Shown in pieces: positions 1 through 31,795 of a stretch of 32,000 nt of DNA. Numbering within the stretch: the first letter of the stretch is position 1; the number at the start of each line of letters is the position of its first letter. The DNA is from Okeania sp. (GTDB taxonomy: Bacteria; Cyanobacteriota; Cyanobacteriia; Cyanobacteriales; Microcoleaceae): NCBI RefSeq assembly GCF_035285525.1, contig NZ_JAYKGW010000171.1, forward strand, positions 47,436-79,435, written 5' to 3'. The position numbers were made by a program, and so were the translations under genes. The notes beneath the pieces are model-generated. The model saw nothing but the letters and a program-made list of their open reading frames with translations, was not told the origin of the DNA and searched no databases.

Positions 1-3000
1 GATGTCAGTTATAAAGACTTAACAGATGGTGGTTATGAAGTCAAACTAGATAATTTTGATTTGCAGAAATTTGTCAAAGATACCACCAAAGTCGAGTTAC
101 CTATAGATGCCAAAGTAGATGATGCAGTAATTAAAATTACCAAAGTCACCAAAGGCGAGCAAGAGGTAAATAATTATGATATCAGCGGTAAGATAAATAA
201 CGCCGATGTCAGTTATAAAGACTTAACAGATGGTGGTTATGAAGTCAAATTTGATGACGAGTTAGACCTGAGTGCTGTGGTGAAGGCAGCAGCTAACGAT
301 CCTAATTTACCAATTCCTTCCCTCAGCTTAAATAAACCTAGTCTGACTTACAGCAAGGATGACTCTGAGACAAAATATAGTTTCACCCTGGCAGATGAGT
401 CATCAATTAGCTACACCAAAAAATCTAATAACGATTATGAGTTTATCGTAGATCATTTCCCCATTGGTAAATTAAGCGAATGGATTGACACTGATCTGGG
501 CATCTCTGGTGCTAGTGAAGTCTTTAAAGGGAACCTTGATGTTGAAATCAGCCCCAATAAGAAAGAAATAGTTTTAGATGGCACTGTAGATTTTGGCAAG
601 TTTATGAAACCGCTCATTAATTATGATGTTTCTTGGAAAGTTAATAAACCTACCTTAAGCTACACAACTCTAGGGGGAGAAACTAAATACAGTTTCTCAG
701 ATACGAGCAAATCTATTAGCTACGCCAAAGATGCTAAAGGGCAAACTACTTTTAAGGTTGATAACTTCCCAATAGGAGATATCGCTAATGTCGTTGCTAG
801 CGGACTAGGATTAAGCAGTAGTAATTTACCAAAATGGATAGTTGATGCGACAATCAGTCCCACTGAGAAGAGTTTAAGTGTTGATGGCGAAATTGCTGTC
901 AAAGACTTTGCAGACTTCGTAGGGTTAAATTTACCAGATGGATTAAATTTAAGTTTGAAAAACCCCAATCTTAGCGTCAAAGGGACAGATAAAAATAAGA
1001 GCTTCGATTTTTCAGGAACCGGGACACTGACTTTACCTAAAGACTCTTTTGATGATTTTACAGAAATTGCCGATTTGTTACCAGGTATAGAGGCAACAGC
1101 TTCAGGGTTAGAGGTATCGGGAGATATTGCAGTTAGCAAATTAAGCTCTGGTGATATTGGATTGCAATTGGGAGTGCCAGTGCTAGGAGCTATCCGGTTA
1201 GAGCGCGAAAACGATAAATGGAAATTAGCAGCTATAGAGGATGGCGATCGCCTAACCATAGCAGACTTAGGAGTAGTCGCCACCAACGACGAATACAGTT
1301 TTACAGATTTATTTAACTATGAATTTAAGGGTGATGCCAATCTGGGATTAAAAACCAAGACGAGCATAGAAGGTAACTCAGCTTTCCCTTCTTTTAATGT
1401 TGATATCGCTGCCGATCTACCTTTATTTAACTATGGCAGTCAGGAAGAAGCAGATGATCGAGGTTTCGATATTGCCTTCAATAATCTCGAAATCGACCTC
1501 GGCACCTTCTTGAGCGACCTTGCTAAACCTGTAGTCGTTGAAGTTGACAGAATTATCGATCCGATTAAGCCAGTTATTAAAGCTCTACAAGCTGATACTA
1601 AGTTACTGTCCAAATTAAAGTTAGAAAGCAAGTTTGATAAAGATGGAAAACCAGGTGTATCTATATTAGAGATTGCGGAAACACTACTTCCTGAAAACAA
1701 AAAAATACAAACAGCAATTACATTTGCCAAGACTGTCAGCGGAATAGTTGATACAGTTGATGCTTTAAATAAGCAGGAAGGCAATAAAAGAATTCCTTTA
1801 GGAAGCTACAATCTAGATGATTTTAAAGCTGCAAGTCAGGATGATGCTGATGATGCCAGCAAGAAGAGTGACTCCATTAAGTTAGATACAGATGATAAAT
1901 CGAAAGACACATCCGAGGATAAATCGAAAGATAAATCTACACCAGAAGAACAAGCAAAAGAAAATGAGGCTTATAAGTCATTTAGTTCTTTAGAAGGAAT
2001 TTCTATTCCTTTGATTGAGAAACCTATCAATGCAGCTTACTTGCTTTTAGGAAAAAATGTGGATTTGATTAAGTATGATATTCCCGATCTTGAATTTGGT
2101 TTTGAACTCAGCCAAAGTTTCCCCTTTTGGACTCCGCCTCTAATTTCCGGCAAATTAGGAGGAGGTATTACGGCGAAAACAGACCTAGCCATTGGTTTTG
2201 ATACTTACGGTGTTAATCAATGGTGGAAAAAATATAATTTCGATCCTGCTAAAGCTTATTTAGTATTTGATGGTTTCTACTTAGACGACTTTGACAAAGA
2301 CGGCAAGGATAAGCCGGAGTTCAGTTTGGACGGTGACATTAGTGCAGGCGTGAATGTCAGCATATTAGCCGCCTCTGCTGAAGTAAAAGGTGGTGTTGAT
2401 GGCAATGTTAGTTTTGATGTCGAAGATGTGGGCGAGAAAACTGGTAAAAACGATGGTAAAATCCGAGGTTCGGAAATTCTTTCTCGAATTAACGACCCAT
2501 TATCCTTATTTGAGCTTTACGGTAAGATCGATGCTTACCTCAAAGGAGAAGCTAAAGTTTTTGGTTTGGGAACAGTTTGGGAGAAAGAATTTGCTCGTTT
2601 CAACTTAGCAGAATTCCGTATCGACAAATCAGGTGCTAGTGCTTCCGCTATTGGTGGCAAATATTCTACCAGTTATATTGCTGATGCCACTATCTTCCTA
2701 GATGCCAACCTCAACGGATTACTAGACGACAATGAACCTGTCACCGTCACTGATAGCAATGGTAACTACAACCTAGAATTTGACATCGAATACTACGATA
2801 CTAACGGCAATGGAAAATTGGATGCAGAAGAAGGGCAAATAGTTGCCATGGGGGGTGTCGATACTTCCAGTGGCGTGAACATTACCACTCAAATGGTGGG
2901 CAGCGTAGAATCTGCAGTGCTAACACCTCTAACTAACCTACAAAAGTTTTTAGTCCAAGAAGAATATGTAGCATCTAACAAAGCAGCCGACAAACTGATG

Positions 3001-6000
3001 ACTGAGAAATTAGATTTACCAAAAGGAGGAAGTTTAGCAGACAACGACCCCATAGCTGATATTGGTGACGACCAAGGGTTAGTCCAGAAAGTAGGTGTAG
3101 AATTTTATCTAGCTCATGTGGAATTGCAAAATATCATCGTTCATGCTAACGCTTTGGTTCAAGGTGTTAATTCTGAAATTGATTCTATCTACTTAGAGAA
3201 AATCGTCACTCAAGGGTTAGCTGAAGCATTGACATCTGAGAAAGTAAGTTTCGACCTCAGCAATGCTGAGGATGTAGAATTTATATTAAAAGAAATTGCT
3301 GCACAAAGCACTAAACCAGATATTGCCAATGGTGAAGAAGAAGAAGGCACTAAACCAGATATTGCCAATGGTGAAGAGATATCTGCTGATATCATCGAAA
3401 CAGTAGCCGAAATGGTGGCTGAAGCTAACGCCCTCATTGATGAAATGGCAACCGCAGCAGAAAAACAAAGTCTCGAACTGGTGATGCCAACTGTTGCTCC
3501 CGTTAAGCGATCTACCCAAGGAGAACTGACGAAAATCACAAAAGAACTTGCTGCGGGCAAATCAACTCCCGAAACTGCACAAGAGCAATTTACAACCCAG
3601 CTAGAAGAAAGCAACCGGTTGGAGCCACAACTCATTAGTGATACTCGCAAGGTCAAAGTTTACTCCACAGGAGATGGGGAGATAGATGAAAACACTGGTA
3701 AAACTATTGACATCGTTATTGAATTAGGAGAACCAGCACCAAATCAAGGTGTGAATATTCTCTACAATATTTCCGGTACTGCTACCGAAGGGGAAGATTA
3801 TCAAATAGTAGGACTACCTAATGGTGGTTCCGAAATTTACATAGAACCAGGAGAAACTCAAAAAACTATAACTATCTCTCCCGAAAACGATGAGATTAGC
3901 GAGCTAACAGAATTTATCACTTTGAATCTCCGGTACGCAGCGGAAAGTTTTGTCATAGATTCGGAAATGCAAACTGCTGTGGTTCGGATTATTGATGATG
4001 AAGAACTAACAACTGGAGATCAACCAGAAGGAATATGGAAACCAGGAACAGTTGACGATGATACTTTAGTGGGCACAAAAAAACAAGACACCTTGAGTGG
4101 TAATTATGGTAACGACTCTATCAAGGGTAAGGCAGGTGCAGATGTCCTCCAAGGTAGTCATGGCAATGACACCATTATTGGTGGAACTGGTTCAGATGTT
4201 GTTGAAGGCAACTATGGCGATGACCTCCTTCAAGGAAACCAAGGAAATGACCAAATTCATGGGGGTTCTGGGGTAGATAGAATTTCCGGTGGTGCAGATA
4301 ACGATGACATTTATGGTGGTGCAGATGATGACAATATTTCTGGTGGTGCAGGCAATGACAATATTTCTGGTGATACAGGCAATGATAATATTTCTGGTGA
4401 TGCTAATAATGACTGGATACAAGGCGGTGTTGGTAACGATGTCATCACTGGTGGCGAAGGTCAAGATGTAGTCAATGGAGGTGATGGGGCAGATTACTTT
4501 GTCTTAAAATCTCCAGAGGAAGGATTAGATATAGTAGTTGACTTCGATCCGACTCAGGGTGACAAAATTATTATTGACTCTGCTGGTTTCAACAATCCTA
4601 CCCTGGAGGATTTCCAATTCCTCAATGGTTACTTGTATTTCCAAAAGCAACAAATTGCTCTGATCCAAAATGAAGGAGTTAGCTACAACTACTTCTCATA
4701 TTTATCAGAAATTCTGGAAATCAAAAACACTAAAACTCTGAAAACTCCGGTTAGTCCTAAAGTTACAATCCAAGAAACAGAGGGCGCTGAAGCAGAAGAA
4801 CCATCAACATCTTCTAATATTGTCTCTCGTAAAGAACCAGCCAATTTGTTCGCAGAAATATTACAGAGGGGTGTTGTCAAAGTGGGAGTTGTAAATAATC
4901 CCGTAGTTTATGAGGAACTAGAAGATGGAACAGCGCGGGGAACAGGTGCTGAATTGGGTAAAACATTAGCAAGTGCCCTGTTTGGTGATGAGAATGCAGT
5001 TGAGTATGTACTTTTAGACTTTAACCAAGGGTTTGAAGCAGTAGCTAACAAAGAAGTTGATATTCTAGATTCGGGAGCAACTTACAACCTAGTCAGAGAT
5101 GCTCTATTAGATATTGACTTTGCTCCAGTTCGCTTTTATGATAACGATGCAATAATTGTTAAAGCTGATAGGGATATTGATAATGCTCAAGAACTCCAAG
5201 GTTTGACTATTGGTGTATTTGCCGGTTCGACTACGGAGCAAAATCTCAAAGATTTCTTAGCCGAAAATAGTATAGAAGTTGAGATCATAAGCTTTAGTAG
5301 CAAGCAAGATATATTTGTATCTTATGATAACGGTGAGATAGATGCAGTAGCAAGCGATCGTACTGTTTTAGCAAGCTTGATTCCCACTTTCTCTAATCCC
5401 GACAACCACAAAATACTAGACGAAGAAATTTCGGAAGGACCTTTAGCACCAATCCTGCCAGAAAATGAATCAGAGTGGGCAGATGTGGTGCGTTGGGTAA
5501 CTTATGTACCTATTCAAGCTGAAGAATTTGCCATTACCTCTAAAAACATTGACCAAGTGAAAGCCGATAGCCAAGACCCAGCTATACGTCGCTTCTTAGG
5601 ATTAGGTGGCAATTTAGAAGGTAATTTAGGGGAAACCCTCGGTTTACCCGCAGACTTCGCAGAAAATGTAATTAAATCTGTTGGTAATTACGATGAAATA
5701 TATAAACGTGTTTTCCCTGGTTTAGAACGTAAACGCAACCATCTCTGGACTAACGAAGGTTTACATTACTCACTACCTTTCTCCGGTACAACAATTTCAT
5801 CAGAATTGATTAATAATGATGAACGAGGTCTTCTGCAGGAAATATTGGAGCGTGGTGTGGTAAATGTAGGTCTCCCTGGTAATAGTCCTGGTTTTGGTGA
5901 ACAAAGAGAAGGAGAATGGCAAGGCTTTGATGTTGATTTAGGTCGCGCATTAGCAGCAGCTTTATTTGGCGATCCTGATCGAGTTAATTTTGTGGAACAG

Positions 6001-7734
6001 GATTTTGCTAAGGGTTTCCCCAATGTAGCCAATGGTAAAGTAGATGTTTCGGCAATGGCTGTTTCCCACAACTTAGTACGAGATGCAGGTTTAGGTATCG
6101 ACTACGGTCCTACCTATCTCTATACCGGACAAGGAATATTAGTCAGAAATAATAGTGGTATCACTTCTTTGCCCATGTTAAATGGTCTGAGAATAGGAGT
6201 GGTAGCAGAAAGGACTACTAAGCAAAATCTGGAAGATAACTTGGCAAAAATAGGAGGTACCTTTGTTCCCGTAGAATTTAACAGCAATAAGGACCTGTTT
6301 GCTGCCTATGAAAGTAATGAAATAGATGCCCTAGCAACAGATTTAACGATTATTGCTACCAGGATTAATGATTTTTCTAATCCTTCGGAACATCGCATCT
6401 TAAATGAAGTCTTGTCTAAAGAACCTTTAGCATTAGTGATTGATGAAAATCAGTCAGACTGGGCAGATGTTGTCCGATGGGTGACTCATACTCTGGTACA
6501 AGCAGAAGAATTTGGCATTACTCAAGAAAATGTAGATGATGTTATTGCTAATAGCGAAAATCTCCAGATTCGTCGTTTCTTAGGTTTAGAAGAAAATATA
6601 GGCGAAACTCTAGGTTTACCTAAAGATTACGCGGTACAAATAATTAAAGCTGTGGGTAACTATGGGGAAGCTTACGATCGCCACTTTAATAAGTTTAATA
6701 GCAATATTTTGCCTCGGGGTACTAACGAATTATTGAGCGACTTTGGCTTACAATATGCTTATCCTTTGGGAGTACCTCCAGTTACTGAAGATGAACCAAC
6801 TGTCCCTATTCAGGAAGACTCTTCGCCACAACAACAAGATGATGAAATTGATGCTGCTGATACTACCACACCTGATGAGACTGAAGATACAGAGACGTCT
6901 GATGAAACTCAAGACACAGAGGATACTACGTCTGATGAGACTGAAGATACAGAAAGTACCATATCTGATGAGACTGAAGATACAGAAAATACCTCAACTC
7001 TAGAAGATGAAACAGGAGAACAGACAACTCTCGACCCTAATGATGGACAAGAGTCTATAGAAGAGGAAGTAGAAGCAGGTCAAGTTACAATAGGTACTGA
7101 TGGTAGCAATACTTTGTCAGGCGGTTCGGACAATAATGTGCTTTACGGTATGCGGGATGACGATGTGCTTTATGGTAATGCAGGAGAGGACACTACTTAT
7201 GGTGGTAAAGGGAATGACCTAATTATTGGAGGCGACGGTGACGACCTTCTTTATGGAAATAATGACAATGATACTATTGAAGGTGAAGGGGGTAACGATG
7301 AAGTTCATGGTAATCGTGGATTAGATTTTATTAATGGTGGCGATGGTGACGATCTACTTTATGGTGGTAAAGATTCTGATCGTATTTTGGGAGGTGCAGA
7401 TAACGACACTATCTTTGGCGATCAGGGTAATGACTTATTAGAAGGTAATGAAGGGGATGATTTGATTGATGGTGGTGAGGGAGATAATACTCTTAGTGGT
7501 GGTCAGGGTGGCGATCGCTTTGTATTAGCTCCAGGTAACAGCAATCTGATTCTAGATTTTGAGGATGGTATTGATTTCTTACAGCTTGAAGATGGTATTG
7601 CTTTTGAGGATTTGACTTTAACTGAAGAATCAGGAAACACTGTGGTTGAGTTGAACTCGGAACGCTTGGCTATTGTTTCGGGGGTAGCTTCTGGTTTGCT
7701 AACAGCAGAAGATTTTCTCATTGCTGAAAGTTAA
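1..7734 (+). CDS. Giant secreted multidomain protein, 5'-partial (repeat modules / Calx-beta / RTX / 2x solute-binding domain / acidic repeats / RTX plus C-terminal tail)
   Basis: Frame 1 is open from nt 1, and the listed start at 61 is only the first TTG. Stop is TAA 7732-7734. The ORF contains GGxGxD nonapeptide runs, a Calx-beta-like segment and AapJ-like segments in one uninterrupted 7.7-kb reading frame. Confidence 0.9.
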   Translation, partial: DVSYKDLTDGGYEVKLDNFDLQKFVKDTTKVELPIDAKVDDAVIKITKVTKGEQEVNNYDISGKINNADVSYKDLTDGGYEVKFDDELDLSAVVKAAANDPNLPIPSLSLNKPSLTYSKDDSETKYSFTLADESSISYTKKSNNDYEFIVDHFPIGKLSEWIDTDLGISGASEVFKGNLDVEISPNKKEIVLDGTVDFGKFMKPLINYDVSWKVNKPTLSYTTLGGETKYSFSDTSKSISYAKDAKGQTTFKVDNFPIGDIANVVASGLGLSSSNLPKWIVDATISPTEKSLSVDGEIAVKDFADFVGLNLPDGLNLSLKNPNLSVKGTDKNKSFDFSGTGTLTLPKDSFDDFTEIADLLPGIEATASGLEVSGDIAVSKLSSGDIGLQLGVPVLGAIRLERENDKWKLAAIEDGDRLTIADLGVVATNDEYSFTDLFNYEFKGDANLGLKTKTSIEGNSAFPSFNVDIAADLPLFNYGSQEEADDRGFDIAFNNLEIDLGTFLSDLAKPVVVEVDRIIDPIKPVIKALQADTKLLSKLKLESKFDKDGKPGVSILEIAETLLPENKKIQTAITFAKTVSGIVDTVDALNKQEGNKRIPLGSYNLDDFKAASQDDADDASKKSDSIKLDTDDKSKDTSEDKSKDKSTPEEQAKENEAYKSFSSLEGISIPLIEKPINAAYLLLGKNVDLIKYDIPDLEFGFELSQSFPFWTPPLISGKLGGGITAKTDLAIGFDTYGVNQWWKKYNFDPAKAYLVFDGFYLDDFDKDGKDKPEFSLDGDISAGVNVSILAASAEVKGGVDGNVSFDVEDVGEKTGKNDGKIRGSEILSRINDPLSLFELYGKIDAYLKGEAKVFGLGTVWEKEFARFNLAEFRIDKSGASASAIGGKYSTSYIADATIFLDANLNGLLDDNEPVTVTDSNGNYNLEFDIEYYDTNGNGKLDAEEGQIVAMGGVDTSSGVNITTQMVGSVESAVLTPLTNLQKFLVQEEYVASNKAADKLMTEKLDLPKGGSLADNDPIADIGDDQGLVQKVGVEFYLAHVELQNIIVHANALVQGVNSEIDSIYLEKIVTQGLAEALTSEKVSFDLSNAEDVEFILKEIAAQSTKPDIANGEEEEGTKPDIANGEEISADIIETVAEMVAEANALIDEMATAAEKQSLELVMPTVAPVKRSTQGELTKITKELAAGKSTPETAQEQFTTQLEESNRLEPQLISDTRKVKVYSTGDGEIDENTGKTIDIVIELGEPAPNQGVNILYNISGTATEGEDYQIVGLPNGGSEIYIEPGETQKTITISPENDEISELTEFITLNLRYAAESFVIDSEMQTAVVRIIDDEELTTGDQPEGIWKPGTVDDDTLVGTKKQDTLSGNYGNDSIKGKAGADVLQGSHGNDTIIGGTGSDVVEGNYGDDLLQGNQGNDQIHGGSGVDRISGGADNDDIYGGADDDNISGGAGNDNISGDTGNDNISGDANNDWIQGGVGNDVITGGEGQDVVNGGDGADYFVLKSPEEGLDIVVDFDPTQGDKIIIDSAGFNNPTLEDFQFLNGYLYFQKQQIALIQNEGVSYNYFSYLSEILEIKNTKTLKTPVSPKVTIQETEGAEAEEPSTSSNIVSRKEPANLFAEILQRGVVKVGVVNNPVVYEELEDGTARGTGAELGKTLASALFGDENAVEYVLLDFNQGFEAVANKEVDILDSGATYNLVRDALLDIDFAPVRFYDNDAIIVKADRDIDNAQELQGLTIGVFAGSTTEQNLKDFLAENSIEVEIISFSSKQDIFVSYDNGEIDAVASDRTVLASLIPTFSNPDNHKILDEEISEGPLAPILPENESEWADVVRWVTYVPIQAEEFAITSKNIDQVKADSQDPAIRRFLGLGGNLEGNLGETLGLPADFAENVIKSVGNYDEIYKRVFPGLERKRNHLWTNEGLHYSLPFSGTTISSELINNDERGLLQEILERGVVNVGLPGNSPGFGEQREGEWQGFDVDLGRALAAALFGDPDRVNFVEQDFAKGFPNVANGKVDVSAMAVSHNLVRDAGLGIDYGPTYLYTGQGILVRNNSGITSLPMLNGLRIGVVAERTTKQNLEDNLAKIGGTFVPVEFNSNKDLFAAYESNEIDALATDLTIIATRINDFSNPSEHRILNEVLSKEPLALVIDENQSDWADVVRWVTHTLVQAEEFGITQENVDDVIANSENLQIRRFLGLEENIGETLGLPKDYAVQIIKAVGNYGEAYDRHFNKFNSNILPRGTNELLSDFGLQYAYPLGVPPVTEDEPTVPIQEDSSPQQQDDEIDAADTTTPDETEDTETSDETQDTEDTTSDETEDTESTISDETEDTENTSTLEDETGEQTTLDPNDGQESIEEEVEAGQVTIGTDGSNTLSGGSDNNVLYGMRDDDVLYGNAGEDTTYGGKGNDLIIGGDGDDLLYGNNDNDTIEGEGGNDEVHGNRGLDFINGGDGDDLLYGGKDSDRILGGADNDTIFGDQGNDLLEGNEGDDLIDGGEGDNTLSGGQGGDRFVLAPGNSNLILDFEDGIDFLQLEDGIAFEDLTLTEESGNTVVELNSERLAIVSGVASGLLTAEDFLIAES
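331..1200 (+). repeat. Three tandem ~104-aa modules inside the giant ORF
   Basis: Units begin NKPSLTY (331), NKPTLSY (643) and KNPNLSV (958). The first two share ETKYSF, SISY.K, F.VD.FPIG and ISP..K...DG motifs. Period is 312-315 nt. Confidence 0.6.
3652..4005 (+). other. Calx-beta-like domain of the giant protein
   Basis: VKVYSTGDGE...ISGTATEGEDYQIV...IEPGETQKTITISPENDEISELTEFITLNL...VVRIIDDE matches the Calx-beta pattern GTA..G.DY...F..GE..K.......D...E..E.F. Confidence 0.7.
4056..4506 (+). other. RTX block 1 (about 14 haemolysin-type Ca-binding nonapeptides)
   Basis: GNYGNDSIKGKAGADVLQGSHGNDTIIGGTGSDVVEGNYGDDLLQGNQGNDQIHGG...GGDGADYFVL, with a 27-nt DNA periodicity. Confidence 0.85.
4846..5785 (+). 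other. Solute-binding (AapJ/BztA-like, SBP_bac_3-type) domain 1
   Basis: LQRGVVKVGV...ELGKTLASALFGD...VEYVLLDFNQGFEAVANKEVDIL...TYNLVRD...ISEGPLAPILPENESEWADVVRWVTYVPIQAEEFAITSKNIDQV...IRRFLGL...GLPADFAENVIKSVGNYDEIY...GLHYSLPF, recalled as similar along the domain length to general L-amino-acid-binding proteins. Confidence 0.75.
5830..6771 (+). other. Solute-binding (AapJ/BztA-like) domain 2
   Basis: LERGVVNVGLPGNSPGFGEQREGEWQGFDVDLGRALAAALFGDPDRVNFVEQDFAKGFPNVANGKVDV...SHNLVRDAGLGIDYGPTYLYTGQGILVR...LSKEPLALVIDENQSDWADVVRWVTHTLVQAEEFGITQENVD...IKAVGNYGEAYDRHF...GLQYAYPL. It is a paralogue of domain 1. Confidence 0.8.
6775..7075 (+). repeat. Acidic Thr/Asp/Glu-rich linker with 33-36 nt repeats
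   Basis: The DNA unit tctgatgagactgaagatacaga recurs, giving (T/S)DETEDTE repeated at the protein level. Confidence 0.7.
7093..7525 (+). other. RTX block 2 followed by a C-terminal non-repeat tail (7526-7731)
   Basis: GGSDNNVLYGMRDDDVLYGNAGEDTTYGGKGNDLIIGGDGDDLLYGNNDNDTIEGEGGNDEVHGN...GGQGGDRFVL. Terminal placement is typical of type I secretion substrates. Confidence 0.85.
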
Positions 7735-7740
7735 AGTAAT

Positions 7741-7843
7741 TAGGACTTACGCAAAGAAACCGGGTTTCTAGGATAAATTGTTGTTTTGAGCAATAGACGT
7801 CTACCCTCGTACCGGGTTTCTGGGTTCACTTGCGTAAGTCCTG
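7741..7843. mobile_element. MITE-like element, copy 1 (103 bp)
   Basis: Termini are TAGGACTTACGCAAAG...CACTTGCGTAAGTCCTG. Flanking direct repeats AGTAAT lie at 7735-7740 and 7844-7849. The interior has AGAAACCGGGTTTCT-type palindromes, and the left repeat abuts the TAA stop of the giant gene. Confidence 0.85.
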
Positions 7844-12290: not shown

Positions 12291-12318
12291 ATTTTAACTT
12301 GAACTGAAAGCTGATAAT

Positions 12319-12367
12319 TAGACATCCTCAAAAATTAAAAATATCATCAATTAGTCTCCCCTATTCC
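12319..12367. repeat. Copy of the GGGAAYAGGGA / TTTTTGGAGATGTCT small repeat family (reverse orientation)
   Basis: tagacatcctcaaaaattaaaaatatcatcaattagtctcccctattccc parallels 15638-15679, 20313-20392 and 28966-29033. Confidence 0.6.
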
Positions 12368-12466
12368 CAGTTAAGTGTTCCCTGTTTCCTAGCGCCTAGC
12401 GCTATAATTACTCCCCCCTATTCCCAGTTAAGTGTTCCCTGTTCCCTAGCGCCTAGCGCCATAACT
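12356..12466. repeat. Tandem 55-nt duplication immediately upstream of potB
   Basis: ctcccctattcccagttaagtgttccctgtttcctagcgcctagcgctataatta (12356-12410) is repeated at 12411-12466 with few changes. The second copy ends 4 nt before the potB ATG. Confidence 0.85.
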
Positions 12467-14687: not shown

Positions 14688-14845
14688 ATGAATGTTTGGC
14701 GGAGGAACTATAAAAATTAAATGAATGTTGGCTACGGGATCTTTCCGGCTGCCACTGCTGTGTTTTGTAAATGATTTATAAGAAAGGATTGTAGGGGTTT
14801 GGTCTCCAAATCCGTATCAAACTAATAAGATGAAACTAGGAGTAT

Positions 14846-15577: not shown

Positions 15578-15679
15578 GAGGGAACAGGGAGCAGAAAGAA
15601 AGAATTAATAATTTCTCGATAAAATTGGAGATGTCTAATAGACATCTACAAAAATTAACAATATAATCAATTATTACCC
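15578..15679. repeat. Head-to-head pair of GGGAAYAGGGA/TTTTTGGAGATGTCT family repeats with a perfect 19-nt palindrome at the junction
   Basis: AGATGTCTA-A-TAGACATCT lies at 15629-15647. The left arm begins gagggaacaggga and the right arm is tagacatctacaaaaattaacaatataatcaatta. Confidence 0.65.
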
Positions 15680-15747
15680 ATAAATCATCAATTACTCCTG
15701 CAAAATATTACTTTTTAATTTTGACTTTTAATAAAGTTTTGGGTCTC

Positions 15748-16374: not shown

Positions 16375-16465
16375 CAGGACTTACACAAAGGTACTATGTA
16401 TAGAGTTCAAAAACTATTGTCCAATAGTTTTGGGCTCTATATATAGCGTCTCTGCGTAAGTCCTG
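16375..16465. mobile_element. MITE-like element, copy 2 (91 bp)
   Basis: Termini are CAGGACTTACAC...CTGCGTAAGTCCTG, with an inner hairpin AAAACTATT-gtcc-AATAGTTTT. No clear TSD. Sits between the divergent rluE and hydrolase starts. Confidence 0.7.
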
Positions 16466-17617: not shown

Positions 17618-17767
17618 CAGAACTTACGCATTAGGAAAGAGCTTTGGTCATTTTAGATTGCTTTCCTTTCCTACGGAATACTACGCAAAGGGAATGCTCA
17701 GCAAAAGCTGTCCCTGGCGCTGCGAGTAGTGCAATGACAGAAATACGTTGCGCGTGCGTAAGTCCTG
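17618..17767. mobile_element. MITE-like element, copy 3 (150 bp)
   Basis: Termini are CAGAACTTACGCA...GTGCGTAAGTCCTG, with TSD ATACA at 17613-17617 and 17768-17772. The right arm gcaatgacagaaatacgttgcgcgtgcgtaagtcct is shared with 23936-23970. Confidence 0.85.
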
Positions 17768-17782
17768 ATACAGATCTATCGT

Positions 17783-18052
17783 TTAGCTCAATACAGAATT
17801 TACCATTACCTTAGTATTTGGCAATTCATCAGATATAGTCAATTCTTCAGGTTGACACTGCTCAATAGAAACCTGAATAACTTGAGCGCCTTCACCTTCC
17901 AAATCTTCTATATAACCTGTCTCAGCATTTTTAGCTTCTTGATCTGTGACAAAAGGACCAAAATAATAAGTGCAATGGGGGTTTGTAGTAGAAATTTTAA
18001 CCCACCAAGCTATTCCAGATAAGTTTAGAATATTGACGAATGTTTCTTTCAT
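17783..18052 (-). CDS. DUF1816-family small protein
   Basis: WWVKISTTNPHCTYYFGPFVTDQEAKNAETGYIEDLEGEGAQ...CQPEELTI. Start is probably the ATG at 18052 (MKETFVNILN). The ORF track extends to 18112. Confidence 0.75.
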   Translation of the reverse strand: MKETFVNILNLSGIAWWVKISTTNPHCTYYFGPFVTDQEAKNAETGYIEDLEGEGAQVIQVSIEQCQPEELTISDELPNTKVMVNSVLS

Positions 18053-18590
18053 GTTATTTAAAAGTCTGACTATTAGTAATTGATTATTGAATGTACTGAT
18101 TTTAATTTCCAATCATATTGATAACTTCCAAGTTTAGAAGTTATAAGTGAACTATCCAGGGAAAATTTAATCCATGACTAAACTAAGTTCTGGAAACTAT
18201 AGTGACTCTTTATTATAGTAAAAAAAGCTAGTATTAGGTTTGTAATATAGCAATTTTCAATAGGTTCCAATATTTTATAGTAGGGGTTTAGTATCCAAAC
18301 CTTAGCAAAATGGGATTTGGAAACTCCATCCCCACAGTTTTTTTTCACAAATTATTTTTGATACTTATACTAAGCAACTTCTGTTTTTTAATCGTGTAAC
18401 ATTTTTCTCATAAGTCAGACATATTAATAAGTTATTAAATTACTTATATTATGTACCCTTTAGTCTTTTTAGAAGTTACTCAAAATTTCAAATTTTATAT
18501 CTTAGGGAGTAGGGAGTAGTTAAAAGTATTAATAGGTTTGAGTTTTCATTTTTTCCTAACTAAGTTATTTCCCAAAAATTCTATTATTTT

Positions 18591-18748
18591 CAGGACTTAC
18601 ACGGGAGGCACTATATATGGAGTATTGCTCAGTTACGACATACGCTTTACATGTCCCGTAGCGTTTCGGCGCTTGAGCCGACATATAAAGCGGAGCTTTG
18701 CGGAACGCAAAACACACCCTACCCATAGCGTTCATGGCTTTAGTCCTG
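18591..18748. mobile_element. MITE-like element, copy 4 (158 bp)
   Basis: Left end is CAGGACTTACAC and the variant right end is CATAGCGTTCATGGCTTTAGTCCTG. TSD ATTTT at 18586-18590 and 18749-18753. Confidence 0.85.
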
Positions 18749-18936
18749 ATTTTTTTATTAGAACTTACGCAAAGAAAGGCACTGATAGATAGGTTCTTGG
18801 TGCGTTACCAAGTCCGCTTTTCATGTCCCGTAGCGTTTCGGCGCTTGAGCCGACATATAAAGCGGAGCTTTGCGGAACGCAAAACACACCCTACTGGACT
18901 TTTTCATCTTAAATGGTGCATTAGAAAATGGGAGAT

Positions 18937-18966
18937 GGGGTGATGGAGGGGGATGGGGGGATGGGG
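18937..18966 (+). other. G-quadruplex-forming motif
   Basis: GGGG-tgatgga-GGGGG-at-GGGGGG-at-GGGG gives four G-runs of at least 4 with loops of 7 nt or less. Confidence 0.6.
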
Positions 18967-19041
18967 TGACGAAAAAAGCTATTTTAGGTGAAACAATGCA
19001 CTACTACACTGACACACCTAAAACTGTGCAGAGCGATTTTT

Positions 19042-19311
19042 TCTACCTTGTCTACCTTATCTACCTTATCTACCTTGTCTACCTTATCTACCTTGTCTAC
19101 CTTATCTACCTTATCTACCTTGTCTACCTTATCTACCTTATCTACCTTATCTACCTTGTCTACCTTATCTACCTTGTCTACCTTATCTACCTTGTCTACC
19201 TTATCTACCTTGTCTACCTTATCTACCTTGTCTACCTTGTCTACCTTATCTACCTTGTCTACCTTATCTACCTTATCTACCTTATCTACCTTATCTACCT
19301 TGTCTACCTTA
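19042..19311. repeat. Tandem nonamer array, 30 perfect copies of TCTACCTTR
   Basis: Counted unit by unit. Position 9 reads G A A G A G A A G A A A G A G A G A G A G G A G A A A A G A. A degenerate tail runs to about 19335. The array is flanked by inverted repeat ACTGACACAC (19008-19017) and GTGTGTCAGT (19360-19369). Confidence 0.95.
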
Positions 19312-19401
19312 TCTACCTGTCCTCCTTGTCTACCCATAACCAAAAAGTAACGCACCATTGTGTGTCAGTCCACTATAGTGTTCATGGGTAAGTCCTATCT
19401 A

Positions 19402-20268
19402 TTACATACGCAAACTTTTTGACCAGCGTTGACGATGTATTTCATAAATGGCCATACCAGTTGCTACTGATACATTTAAACTAGGGGTACTTCCCGACAT
19501 TGGTATAGAAACTAAGACGTCACAGTTTTTTTGAATAAGAAGACTTAAACCCTCTGCTTCGCTACCAACAACTAAAACAATAGCTCCGGTAAATTTTATG
19601 GTATGGATAGGTTCCCCATCATTTGCCACAGTACCATATATCCAGAAACCCTCTTTCTTCAACTCTTCCAAAGCATTGCTAAGATTAACAACTCTAGCTA
19701 CAGGAAAATTTTCTAAGGCTCCTGCTGCAACTTTGGTCACAGTGGAAGTTATTCCCACGGCTCGTCTTTGTGGAATAATTAAACCTTGTATTCCCAGAGC
19801 TTCTGCAGTACGAATAATGGCTCCTAAATTATGAGGATCGTTGAGACCATCAGCTACCAACAATACAGGTTGCTCGGTTTTGGATTTTGCTTGAGATATT
19901 AATTCGTGAAGTTCTTTATACTGATAAGGACATACTTGAGCTGCTATACCCTGATGATTTTTTCTATGGGTAATTTGAGTTAAGCGTCGATCGTCTACTT
20001 CATCTATAATTGTACCTTTGGTTTTCGCTTCATTTAGTAATGTATGAAACCGGGGATCGTATCGCAGTGGAGGAATAATCCAAATTCGGTTTAAATATCG
20101 TTCACTCTGGAGAGCAGCTTGCACACTATGTCGTCCGTAGATTAAATCATCATTTTCGTCATTGATATTTGTGGAACTATCATTTTTGGGCTGTATATCT
20201 TTTAGTTTAATTTGTTTCTTTTTTTGCGGTTTTTCTTGAGAATTTAATTTCAAATTTTTCGTAGACAT
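19402..20268 (-). CDS. rlmB: 23S rRNA (guanosine-2'-O)-methyltransferase, SpoU/TrmH family
   Basis: [11 protein letters not shown] substrate-binding region plus SpoU motifs [23 protein letters not shown] and [22 protein letters not shown]. Confidence 0.85.
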
Positions 20269-20312
20269 AATCTTATAGCAAATCTAGTTTAATACCAATA
20301 ATATTTATCAAA

Positions 20313-20392
20313 TAAACATCTCCAAAAATCCCAAATATAATCAATTTTTTTTCATTATTTATGATGAAAAAAAATTATTTTCCCTGTTCCCT
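20313..20392. repeat. Copy of the GGGAAYAGGGA/TTTTTGGAGATGTCT repeat family (reverse orientation)
   Basis: aaacatctccaaaaatcccaaatataatcaatttttttt...ttttccctgttccctc. Confidence 0.55.
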
Positions 20393-23280: not shown

Positions 23281-23407
23281 TAGTAGACAGATACAGATAA
23301 AATGTTGCATGGGGTAGGGGCGGGTTTTAGCTAGAATTTTCATGCTTACTCTAAGATTTATATAAACCCGCCAATCATGCACACTCATTAGCTGTGTCTG
23401 TCTAGTA
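23281..23407. repeat. 127-nt multi-tier imperfect palindrome
   Basis: Outer arms TAGTAGACAGATACAG / CTGTGTCTGTCTAGTA match 14/16. Middle arms are TTGCATG/CATGCAC and inner arms are GGCGGGTTT (23319-27) / AAACCCGCC (23364-72). A paralogue lies at 27364-27505. Confidence 0.75.
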
Positions 23408-23420
23408 GGGATTTAGTATC

Positions 23421-23641
23421 TAAATCCTATTTCAGATTTCGTTTAGAGACCAAACCTTTACAGTTTTTTTTGAGAAATTTCTTCATCAGGACTTACGCAA
23501 AGGCTCTATATACAGAGTATAGGTGCGTTACGCTACGCTTTTCATATCGCGCAGCGAAACGCACCCTACCAATAGCTAAATCCTATTTTAGATTTCGTTT
23601 GGAGACCAAACCCTTACAGTTTTTTTTAGAAGTTTCTTCAT
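23421..23641. repeat. Two 65-66-nt direct repeats flanking a truncated MITE
   Basis: taaatcctatttcagatttcgtttagagaccaaacctttacagttttttttgagaaatttcttcat (23421-23486) recurs at 23577-23641 with a few substitutions. Confidence 0.85.
23487..23576. mobile_element. MITE-like element, copy 6, right end missing (90 bp)
   Basis: CAGGACTTACGCAAAGGCTCTATATACAGAG...GCACCCTACCAATAGC. It stops where other copies continue to GTTCATGGCTTTAGTCCT. Confidence 0.7.
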
Positions 23642-23747
23642 ATTGCTATATTATTTAGTTATCAAGACATCCAGCTAAATCTATAGTTTTGAAATACTAA
23701 ATTTTATTATTTGCATCATTCTTTACTTAGGTTATTTAGAATATAAT

Positions 23748-23842
23748 CAGGACTGACGCAAGTGCAATGTATTTTCGTCCGATACGACGGTCGGGAAGCA
23801 ATCTCAAACCCCTGTTTTTCGTACCTCATGGCTTTAGTCCTC
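23748..23842. mobile_element. MITE-like element, copy 7a (95 bp)
   Basis: CAGGACTGACGCAAGTGCAATGTATTTTCG...CCTCATGGCTTTAGTCCTC. Looks closely similar to copy 10 (27123-27215) over its full length by eye. Confidence 0.75.
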
Positions 23843-23852
23843 ATCATATTAA

Positions 23853-23971
23853 CAGGACTAAAGCCATGAGGAGCGGAATTTTCTTGGCTTGAGATTGCTA
23901 TCCTGACGGACTGCTTCGCCAACGCTCCTCGCGGGCAATGACAGAAATACGTTGCGCGTGCGTAAGTCCTA
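23853..23971. mobile_element. MITE-like element, copy 7b (119 bp)
   Basis: Variant left end CAGGACTAAAGCCATGAGG and right end GCGTGCGTAAGTCCTA. The interior ttgagattgctatcctgacggactgc is shared with copy 13. Only 10 nt separate it from copy 7a. Confidence 0.7.
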
Positions 23972-24777: not shown

Positions 24778-24940
24778 TATTGGTAACACAACCTTCTAGG
24801 TTGTTACAGCAAACGAAGGCTGTGTTACTCTAAATATGCAGATAGCGTTCATGGGTAAGTCCTGATCTAATCGTCTATTGGTAACACAACCTTCTAGGTT
24901 GTGACAGCAAACGAAGGCTGTGTTACTCTAAATATGCAGA
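24778..24940. repeat. Two 65-nt hairpin units (24778-24842, 24876-24940) flanking a MITE end fragment
   Basis: tattggtaacacaaccttctaggttgtKacagcaaacgaaggctgtgttactctaaatatgcaga occurs twice with 1 mismatch. Each unit has a 14-bp stem GTAACACAACCTTC / GAAGGCTGTGTTAC. Confidence 0.9.
24843..24864. mobile_element. MITE right-end fragment (22 nt)
   Basis: TAGCGTTCATGGGTAAGTCCTG equals the right ends of copies 4 and 5. Confidence 0.6.
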
Positions 24941-26115: not shown

Positions 26116-26270
26116 TAGGACTTACCCATGGGGAAGGAAATTTAAAGGTTTGAGATTGCTTTCGGTCTGGAATGCGGAGCATTCATGTCGCGGAGCGCAA
26201 AACGCTGTGGCTTGCGCTTCCCAAAGCTGCGCTGACACAATGACAAAATTGCGTTTATGCGTAAGTCCTG
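26116..26270. mobile_element. MITE-like element, copy 9 (155 bp)
   Basis: TAGGACTTACCCATGGGG...TTATGCGTAAGTCCTG, with TSD TTTAT at 26111-26115 and 26271-26275. Confidence 0.85.
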
Positions 26271-27122: not shown

Positions 27123-27215
27123 CAGGACTTACGCAACTGCAACGTATTTTCCTCCGATATGACAACAGGAAGCAATCTCAAACCCCTGTTTTTCCTACCT
27201 CATGGTTTAGTCCTA
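27123..27215. mobile_element. MITE-like element, copy 10 (93 bp)
   Basis: CAGGACTTACGCAACTGC...CCTCATGGTTTAGTCCTA, with TSD TATAG at 27118-27122 and 27216-27220. Confidence 0.85.
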
Positions 27216-27380: not shown

Positions 27381-27451
27381 TAGGACTTACGCAAAGAAAC
27401 CCGATTTCTAGGCTCGTACCGGGTTTCTGGGTTCGCGTGGCTTTAGTCCTG
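27381..27451. mobile_element. MITE-like element, copy 11 (71 bp)
   Basis: TAGGACTTACGCAAAGAAACCCGATTTCTAGG...GCGTGGCTTTAGTCCTG, with TSD TAAAT at 27376-27380 and 27452-27456. It interrupts a paralogue of the 23281-23407 palindrome. Confidence 0.9.
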
Positions 27452-27539
27452 TAAATCTTAAGAGTAAACATTAAAATTCTAGCTAAAAACTGCTCCTACT
27501 ATTGGGTGGGTGAGACACTCCCTGTACTTCTATAATCAA

Positions 27540-27659
27540 CAGGACGCAAAGGCACTATATATAGCGTCTTGCTCAGTTACGAGATACGCTTTACATGTCG
27601 CGTAGCGTTAGCGGAACGCAAAACACACCCTACCAGTAACGTTCATGGCTTTAGTCCTA
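27540..27659. mobile_element. MITE-like element, copy 12 (120 bp, left end lacks TTAC)
   Basis: CAGGACGCAAAGGCACTATATATAGCG...AACGTTCATGGCTTTAGTCCTA, with TSD ATCAA at 27535-27539 and 27660-27664. The right TSD contains the stop codon of the adjacent gene. Confidence 0.85.
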
Positions 27660-28959: not shown

Positions 28960-28965
28960 TTACAG

Positions 28966-29033
28966 AAAAGAGGGAATAGGGAATAGGGAATAGGGAATAA
29001 TAATTGATTTTACTTTTGATTTTTGGAGATATC
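28966..29033. repeat. 68-bp GGGAATAGGGAAT/TTTTTGGAGATATC family element flanked by a 16-bp direct repeat
   Basis: TATTAGTCATTTACAG at 28950-28965 and 29034-29049 is identical (16/16). The interior is aaaagagggaatagggaatagggaatagggaataataattgattttacttttgatttttggagatatc. Confidence 0.8.
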
Positions 29034-29069
29034 TATTAGTCATTTACAGTTTGATCAATTTTTAAGTTG

Positions 29070-30027: not shown

Positions 30028-30224
30028 CAGGACTTACGCATGAGGAACGAAATTTCAAGGTTTGAGGTTGCTATCCTGACGGACTGCGACCCATTCATGT
30101 CGCGGAGCGAAACTCTGTCGCTGGCGCAGCGCCAGCGCAGCGCTTTTCATGTCGCGTAGCGTTTTATGTCGGCTCAAGCGCCGAAAACGCAATAACGGCA
30201 ATACCTTATTTTGCGTAAGTCCTA
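30028..30224. mobile_element. MITE-like element, copy 13 (197 bp)
   Basis: CAGGACTTACGCATGAGGAACG...TTATTTTGCGTAAGTCCTA, with TSD TAAAT at 30023-30027 and 30225-30229. Confidence 0.85.
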
Positions 30225-31668: not shown

Positions 31669-31795
31669 CAGAACTTACGATAAAGAAACCCGGTTTCTAG
31701 GTTCCTCCGCCAAGAAACCGGGTTTCTAAGTTCTCCCGCCAAGAAACCCGACTTCTAAGTTCCCCCGCCAAGAAACCGGGTTTCTAGATTCGCCT
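31669..31795. mobile_element. MITE-like element, copy 14, with expanded internal unit and no recognisable right end
   Basis: The left end is CAGAACTTACGATAAAGAAACCCGGTTTCTAGG. It is followed by tandem 29-nt units. Confidence 0.6.
31683..31794. repeat. 3.9 tandem copies of a 29-nt unit
   Basis: Unit 1 is aagaaacccggtttctaggttcctccgcc (31683-31711), unit 2 aagaaaccgggtttctaagttctcccgcc (31712-31740) and unit 3 aagaaacccgacttctaagttcccccgcc (31741-31769). A partial fourth unit runs to 31794. Confidence 0.9.

Follow-up and report, generated by a model that had tools for sequence, protein, structure and literature searches.

Is the 639-bp block that follows rlmB in a marine filamentous cyanobacterium a single transposable element with cargo, or does it consist of several elements lodged in one another? 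The block occupies positions 18759–19397 of the stretch of DNA that we analyzed (32,000 nt, here called the window) and sits in the spacer that separates rlmB from a DUF1816 gene, 4 nt past the rlmB stop codon. [quoted passage not shown] We find instead that it very probably consists of three nested non-autonomous elements, namely a host MITE (family A) and two members of a second family (family B, elements E1 and E2) at the CTAC of that MITE. As a paralogous empty site we used the neighboring copy 4, an intact family A MITE on the plus strand (18591–18748) with ATTTT duplications at 18586–18590 and 18749–18753, which contains a single CTAC (18719–18722, in the context ACACACC-CTAC-CCATAGCG). 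The left part of the host MITE (18759–18894, plus strand) ends in the target CTAC (18891–18894), and its right part, CTATAGTGTTCATGGGTAAGTCCTA (19373–19397, plus strand), aligns with CCATAGCGTTCATGGCTTTAGTCCTG of copy 4. When positions 18895–19372 are removed, the alignment of the right part with 18723–18748 of copy 4 is free of gaps, as is the joint itself, and the remaining 161 nt are colinear with the 158 nt of copy 4. The MITE does resume after the interior, as had been predicted, at 19373 and not at 19374. Its ends are inverted repeats (TAGAACTTACGCA at 18759 and TGGGTAAGTCCTA at 19397), flanked by the 5-bp target duplications TTTAT (18754–18758) and TCTAT (19398–19402), which match in 4/5 positions; the right one takes in the final base of the rlmB stop codon (19402–19404, minus strand). 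The 10 nt reported to separate copy 4 from the composite (18749–18758) are exactly the abutting duplications ATTTT and TTTAT. The outer ends belong to one element, which without its inserts is ~160 bp long, non-coding and multi-copy. The claim that the block reproduces the left two thirds of copy 4 stands as far as order is concerned, 18759–18894 being colinear with copy 4, but the first ~60 nt are only ~65% alike. The 73-nt identity with copy 4 is real and lies one base from where it had been placed: 18650–18722 is identical to 18822–18894, its end falling precisely where family B inserted, and the two MITEs are ~65–80% alike elsewhere. Judged by this distribution of identity, it looks like a gene-conversion tract that was halted by heterology.

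The host is a MITE of the ISPlag1/IS701 type. We counted 30 occurrences of the terminus AGGACTTAC in the window, where 6.9 were expected, and such termini bound at least 12 short elements there, with varied interiors and, at 7 of 12 sister MITEs, perfect 5-nt AT-rich duplications. A search of the literature for the terminus string led us to ISPlag1, an insertion sequence (IS) of the IS701 group from Planktothrix agardhii, which has a 29-nt terminal inverted repeat and 197-bp remnants (Christiansen et al., 2008; PMC2464740). The host and its sister copies, at least 12 of them, bear the ISPlag1 repeat CAGGACTTACGCA...CTATATATAG, and the MITE termini of the window agree with the published 29-nt repeat in up to 13/13 outer nucleotides and 28/29 overall. 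Each of the composite's two ends matches 11/13 of the first nucleotides, and the left one has decayed to TAGAACTTAC (TAGAAC). We recovered a full-length ISPlag1 of 1,306 bp from a Planktothrix plasmid (L038, 17213–18518; L numbers denote the loci used for comparison). It codes for a 337-aa transposase with the published motif CAIRWKIEEFHREIK, whose homologues carry the name IS701 family transposase (thousands were returned), and it is flanked by the duplication ACAGT/ACAGT, 5 bp as in the MITEs of the window. The duplication length given for the IS701 family is 4 or 5 bp (PMC8024623). Unlike ISPlag1, the window copies are 70–200 bp long, have unrelated modular interiors, lack a transposase and belong to another genus (Okeania/Dapis/Trichodesmium clade). 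None of the ISPlag1 transposase homologues among the 120 matches listed was named from this clade, a tblastn search with the transposase found no homologue in the window or in the related loci, and no full-length ISPlag1-type partner of the window MITEs was seen in the DNA examined. Nezha, a MITE of Anabaena/Nostoc (Zhou et al., 2008, as summarized in PMC3184786), is likewise cyanobacterial, measures 130–170 bp, shares its terminal repeats with an IS, has flanking direct repeats and shows filled and empty sites between related species, but its IS partner is ISNpu3, its ends are different, and that summary mentions no nesting or internal arrays. Our literature search found no description of MITEs from Trichodesmium or Okeania.

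ISPlag1-type MITEs (YAGGACTTACGCA...TGCGTAAGTCCTR) are scattered across the window, at 7741–7843, 16375–16465, 17618–17767, 23487–23842, 23853–23971, 26116–26270, 27123–27215, 27381–27451, 27540–27659, and 30028–30224; most have 5-bp AT-rich duplications and unrelated modular interiors. A ~28–33-nt module, TTTCGGCGCTTGAGCCGACATATAAAGC, is located at 18664–18691 and 18836–18863, inside copy 4 and the composite, and again at 30159–30186. It is missing from the sister MITE at 27540–27659, is inverted in the one at 30028–30224, and may represent a third level of nesting.

What, then, lies inside the host? With all variants of the terminal repeat mapped, the 478 bp of the interior (18895–19372) resolve into two complete family B elements. 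Terminal inverted repeats of the interior itself lie right at its two borders, where the left one reads TGGACT(11 nt)AATGGTGCATTA and the right one TAACGCACCATT(7 nt)AGTCCA; the host|E1 junction reads ACACACCCTAC|TGGACTTTTTC and the E2|host junction GTCAGTCCA|CTATAGTG. The G-rich tract, the 10-bp inverted pair and the 30 nonamers that had been noticed between the two host parts are all present. E1 (18895–19000, plus strand) is a family B element with a G-rich core between its left repeat (18895–18924) and a decayed right repeat (18978–19000), and it has CTAC on both sides. Its G-rich tract (18930–18966) fits the G3+N1-7 G-quadruplex motif and is one of two such motifs in the 32 kb. Aligned end to end with the elements of L020, L021, L017, and L014, from Okeania and a Microcoleaceae genome, E1 shows 84–87% identity, and the layout of these relatives runs from a terminal repeat through AAAATGGGG, a run of G-rich 7–8-mers and GGGGTGACGAAAAAAGCTAATGCAC... 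to the second terminal repeat. Intact family B members fold as a long hairpin in which the left repeat pairs with the right one (z −4.9 and −5.8 for L020 and L021), whereas E1 has lost this fold through an 8-nt deletion in its right repeat (z −0.4). The only other G-quadruplex motif of the window is AGGGAAT repeated four times at 28971–28999.

A CTAC common to both elements (19001–19004) separates E1 from E2 (19005–19372, minus strand), which belongs to a nonamer subfamily and is inverted relative to an Okeania element in L022 (7256–7428). The terminal repeats of E2, an inner one at 19005–19034 and an outer one at 19347–19372, are damaged; a conserved block lies at 19333–19346, the 10-bp inverted pair at 19008–19017 and 19360–19369, and the flanks are CTAC and CTAT. 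The nonamer array (19042–19311) comprises exactly 30 perfect units, 18 TCTACCTTA and 12 TCTACCTTG, which differ by A/G at one position, and is followed by ~3 degenerate units that reach to ~19335. Read as its reverse complement, E2 shares AATGGTGCGTTACTTTTTGGTTATGGG (27/27) and then a nonamer array with the L022 element, which has about nine AAGACAAGG units compared with the 30 TAGAYAAGG units of the window. Both E1 and E2 are old, decayed copies. We rejected a CRISPR-like array as an interpretation of the nonamer tract, its 30 units being contiguous and without spacers, and likewise a coding repeat, the open reading frame (ORF) through the array having no Pfam match.

To which sites, and in which organisms, has family B moved? 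We derived a pattern from the positions common to both ends of the interior and scanned one genome per species for 185,579 species. Twelve of the 15 stretches returned lie in Okeania (four genomes), Dapis BLCC M172, and Microcoleaceae MO_207.B10; the other 3/15 are in unrelated bacteria, which is about the chance expectation. A metagenome scan with an internal 21-mer gave 14 more family B loci. The family has terminal inverted repeats of ~30 nt with the consensus TGGACTGACACACCTTAAATGGTGCATTAG and ends of the type TGGACTGACACACC, and its central repeat varies among copies in unit (7–9 nt) and number. We compiled 35 non-identical elements of 89–377 nt, 24 of which have exact direct flanks (CTAC in 13, GTAG in 11), with one mismatch in 5 more. 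Between CTAC and GTAG, the base adjacent to the element changes together with the outer base, so all four bases are derived from the target, and a TA duplication of the IS630/mariner type was discarded on this ground. Solitary copies occur outside family A MITEs (L012, L018, L021, and L022), and many copies abut TAACRCACC|CTAC. Tandem arrays whose members share one CTAC, spaced as in the window, contain up to five elements in L008 and were also found in L014, L017, L026, and L036; the order CTAC-E1-CTAC-E2-CTAT of the window follows this pattern. Moreover, in a metagenome contig (L024) a family B element of another subfamily has inserted into an ISPlag1-type MITE (5581–5781) at the same CTAC. 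This insertion is flanked by CTAC/CCAC, the extra tetranucleotide is present, and the MITE then continues intact. Our literature search found neither the terminal sequences of family B nor any description of the family.

Some members are more complex. Long family B elements in L026 (663–883), L035 (7217–7512), and L036 (1684–2060) have their TTATAC core interrupted by further insertions of 100–270 nt, which adds at least one more level of nesting in related genomes, and at L032 4450–4815 we observed a tandem duplication of a unit that comprises a family B element and ~130 nt resembling the interior of a MITE.

That related species lack the block is congruent with its being composed of inserted elements. 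The orthologous spacers after rlmB in Dapis (L003) and Trichodesmium sp. (L005) do not contain 18505–19399 and resemble the reconstructed pre-insertion sequence of the window; homology resumes ~26 nt past the rlmB stop, in the portion of the spacer that comes after the two MITEs, so that 18505–19399 counts as an insertion when compared with those species. The whole block is missing from all the orthologous loci (L002–L007), so the order of the nested events cannot be read from them. We propose that a ~160-bp ISPlag1-type MITE would have inserted 4 nt past the rlmB stop with a 5-bp duplication, and that two family B members would then have inserted side by side at its single CTAC. Insertion at CTAC would leave CTAC on both sides, and as each resident copy would thereby offer new targets, the tandem pair would be explained. 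Replication slippage would have lengthened the nonamer core of E2 in situ to 30 units, starting from a shorter array such as that of L022, after which both inner elements and the host would have decayed. The 73-nt conversion tract from copy 4 would stop at the insertion point.

The block might alternatively be a functional composite MITE with captured or generated cargo, which moves as a unit by its ISPlag1-type ends and spreads the G-tract and the nonamer array. Its outer ends do form a matched pair with a 4/5 duplication on which an ISPlag1-like transposase could in principle act, and MITEs with internal minisatellites, such as BrickBuilt (PMC4596501), are known. We nevertheless regard this as very unlikely. 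The interior is not cargo, as it resolves fully into two mobile family B elements, each having repeats and CTAC flanks of its own, at a site-specific hot spot, and the left terminus of the host is degenerate. Further copies of the cargo junction, for which a search had been proposed, did not turn up: no second host|E1 junction was found among the 185,579 species genomes, although the scan pattern would have matched it. The sole analogous composite of the metagenome scan, L024, combines another host subfamily with another family B subfamily, which indicates an independent insertion. With a single junction and an analogue made of different subfamilies, nothing indicates spread of the composite as one unit. 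The suggestion that these elements spread structured non-coding DNA holds for family B, which carries G-rich or nonamer arrays as integral parts whose length would then alter where they landed, but not for the composite MITE, which was not seen spreading. Repeated site-specific insertion, and not a travelling composite, is the simplest account. We find it extremely improbable that the left and right ends are two separate truncated MITEs around unrelated repeat DNA. Solo MITE ends do occur in the window (24842–24864 and ~31669), but once the inner 478 bp are taken out, what remains is an element of full length that runs colinear with copy 4 and neither lacks nor gains a base at the joint, 4/5 positions of the flanking 5-mers agree, and L024 has the same interrupted architecture; on this point, the original prediction of one interrupted MITE was right.

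Several observations nevertheless weigh against three elements nested by simple duplication of CTAC. Two 4-bp duplications would predict a right junction 4 nt longer than the one present, which reads CTAT+AGTG and not CTAC+CCATAGTG, so that a small deletion must be assumed under the duplication model. Inverted flanks were found in 3/35 family B elements, with unclear ends in another 3/35, and there are solo terminal-repeat units flanked as CTAC|unit|GTAG. The nonamer subfamily has two elements only, E2 and that of L022; the source genome lies outside the scanned collections, so copies in the same genome are uncounted; and neither an autonomous family B element nor any kind of transposase turned up in the 319 kb of loci. 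Solo units and inverted flanks, as exceptions to the simple duplication model, are found at L002 4762–4795, L011 ~5697–5727, L008 6891–7130, and L034 3278–3387.

Which enzyme would mobilize family B? We lean slightly toward an IS701-family DDE transposase that acts in trans with a 4-bp staggered cut at CTAC. This preference draws on the duplication length of IS701, the long repeats that start with TG, the ISPlag1-like outer nucleotides and the extra tetranucleotide of L024. In the IS701 family the duplication has been described as highly conserved and exactly 4 bp long (PMC2266710), the outer 13 nt of the family B repeat match the ISPlag1 repeat in 10/13 positions, and the repeats are long, true terminal inverted repeats. 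A search for the IS701 C1 motif and tblastn with the ISPlag1 transposase yielded nothing in the 319 kb of loci examined, and only one pair of inverted family B ends was found 500–4000 bp apart (L036, 1541–2203), which spans a tandem array and no coding element. A possible but doubtful alternative keeps the same nesting and has family B moved by an HUH tyrosine enzyme, either of the IS200/IS605 type or a REP-associated tyrosine transposase (RAYT; REP, repetitive extragenic palindromic), which would read the GTAG/CTAC tag and insert 3′ of CTAC, the second CTAC being owned by the element and not arising as a duplication. The invariant flanking tetranucleotide recalls the targets of IS200/IS605 (PMC6006769) and the GTAG tag of REPs (PMC3733652), and the favored target is complementary to the GTAG tag beside a GGTGYGTTA...TAACRCACC palindrome. 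GTAG-tagged palindromes abound in the window and the loci, self-targeting arrays are expected from such a mechanism, and the right junction of the window lacks the expected extra tetranucleotide. This tetranucleotide is, however, present in L024, and long TG-starting terminal inverted repeats are typical of DDE elements, while elements of the IS200/IS605 type have none and possess subterminal hairpins instead. The flanks are direct in 29/35 elements, unlike those of REP doublets, CTAC and GTAG are about equally frequent (13 vs. 11) at the same internal orientation, and the hairpins of single terminal-repeat units are only weak and are not conserved (variants v1–v4). Furthermore, no ORF with an HUH motif (regular expression HUH...Y) was found in ~208 kb of loci, and no RAYT was seen nearby. 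We consider it unlikely that family B represents an undescribed kind of self-targeting, strictly CTAC-specific miniature element of the Okeania/Dapis/Trichodesmium clade, with a hypervariable core that is prone to form G-quadruplexes or made of nonamers, which inserts next to its own flank and to GTAG-tagged palindromes by means of a tag-reading, RAYT-like tyrosine enzyme and not of a DDE transposase. If this were true, family B would bridge MITEs and REPINs, the REP doublets.

GTAG-tagged palindromes (GTAGGGGTTTGGTCTCCAAACC..., GTAGGGGCGGGTTT...) with the appearance of REPs or REPINs are located at 14783–14810, 18280–18336, 23314–23352, 23442–23478, 23598–23625, and 27461–27499 of the window and at L024 5472–5540. 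Family B is often inserted at the CTAC end of such palindromes, for example in L022 and L012.

Among known systems, the small dispersed repeats of the filamentous cyanobacterium Nostoc punctiforme reportedly nest in MITEs and in each other in Russian-doll style, and they are comparable to family B as tiny mobile repeats that insert into other repeats. By description they are set apart, as they are said to be 21–27 nt long and to have neither long terminal repeats nor a tandem-repeat core. Family B, and E2 especially, also resembles the BrickBuilt MITE of Porphyromonas gingivalis, which is small, non-coding and bounded by inverted repeats, with a tandem-repeat body of variable length between leader and tail segments (Klein et al., 2015; PMC4596501). 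BrickBuilt differs in its 23-nt units (7–9 nt in family B) and shows no sequence relationship, and neither a fixed tetranucleotide target nor tandem nesting has been reported for it (PMC4596501). With REPs and REPINs that carry GTAG tags, family B shares the format of ~100-nt doublets of inverted ~30-nt units around a short variable spacer, the association with GTAG/CTAC, clustering in arrays and an intergenic position (PMC3116915, PMC3733652, PMC6006769). Membership of family B in the REPINs was rejected all the same: its flanks are inverted in 3 elements only, as opposed to the inverted tags of REPs, and its units are AT-rich with 3–5-bp stems in shifting registers (v1–v4), in contrast to stable G+C-rich hairpins.

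The block is selfish DNA in an intergenic spacer with no demonstrated cellular function, and nothing suggests a new one; what we describe is ordinary nesting of selfish DNA. The host belongs to the known ISPlag1/IS701 kind of MITE, to which the abundant YAGGACTTACGCA elements of the clade are now linked, and family B acts as a MITE that contains a micro- or minisatellite. For annotation purposes, the 639 bp very probably correspond to three nested non-autonomous elements and should be annotated neither as a gene or an RNA nor as a transposon with cargo; the ORFs crossing the nonamer array are artefacts. Family B adds a second family. Its target is a single tetranucleotide, its own flank is used again when tandem arrays are built, and it introduces G-rich and nonamer microsatellites of variable length into intergenic DNA. 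Marine filamentous cyanobacteria of the Okeania/Dapis/Trichodesmium clade have large non-coding genome fractions. An exact look-up of the rlmB protein returned only the Logan contig L001 (SRR19514071, same strain, 1.1 kb), which is identical to the window until 19330 and ends within the nonamer array. This shows that the array breaks assemblies; family B arrays break short-read assemblies and are possible strain markers.

The source DNA is from a marine filamentous cyanobacterium near Dapis, Okeania, Hydrocoleum, and Trichodesmium, whose homologues are 91–92% identical to the RlmB of the window (19402–20268, minus strand). On the other side of the spacer lies the DUF1816 gene (17783–18112, minus strand). 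The neighboring genes have housekeeping functions, and no transposase was found around the block. Scans of the window detected no Rfam families or tRNAs, and between 18100 and 19450 there were no predicted terminators and 7 promoter-like sites (4.4 expected). Neither copy 4 nor the left cargo had a match in the plasmid database. Farther away, a very long ORF (61–7734, 2557 aa) contains many 27-nt repeats, which, judging by the sequence, probably encode Gly/Asp-rich nonapeptides of the RTX calcium-binding type. A dispersed repeat, …ATAATCAATTATTACCC…, is accompanied by heptamer arrays at 12314–12464, 15634–15688, 20308–20362, and 28964–29056. At 31683–31786, next to a solo MITE end, 3.6 copies of a 29-nt tandem repeat are built of the hairpin AAGAAACCCGGTTTCT, which is also the interior of the MITEs at 7741–7843 and 27381–27451. 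Finally, a 65-nt direct repeat with 98% identity (24778–24842 and 24876–24940, 98 nt apart) is located just upstream of a solo MITE end.

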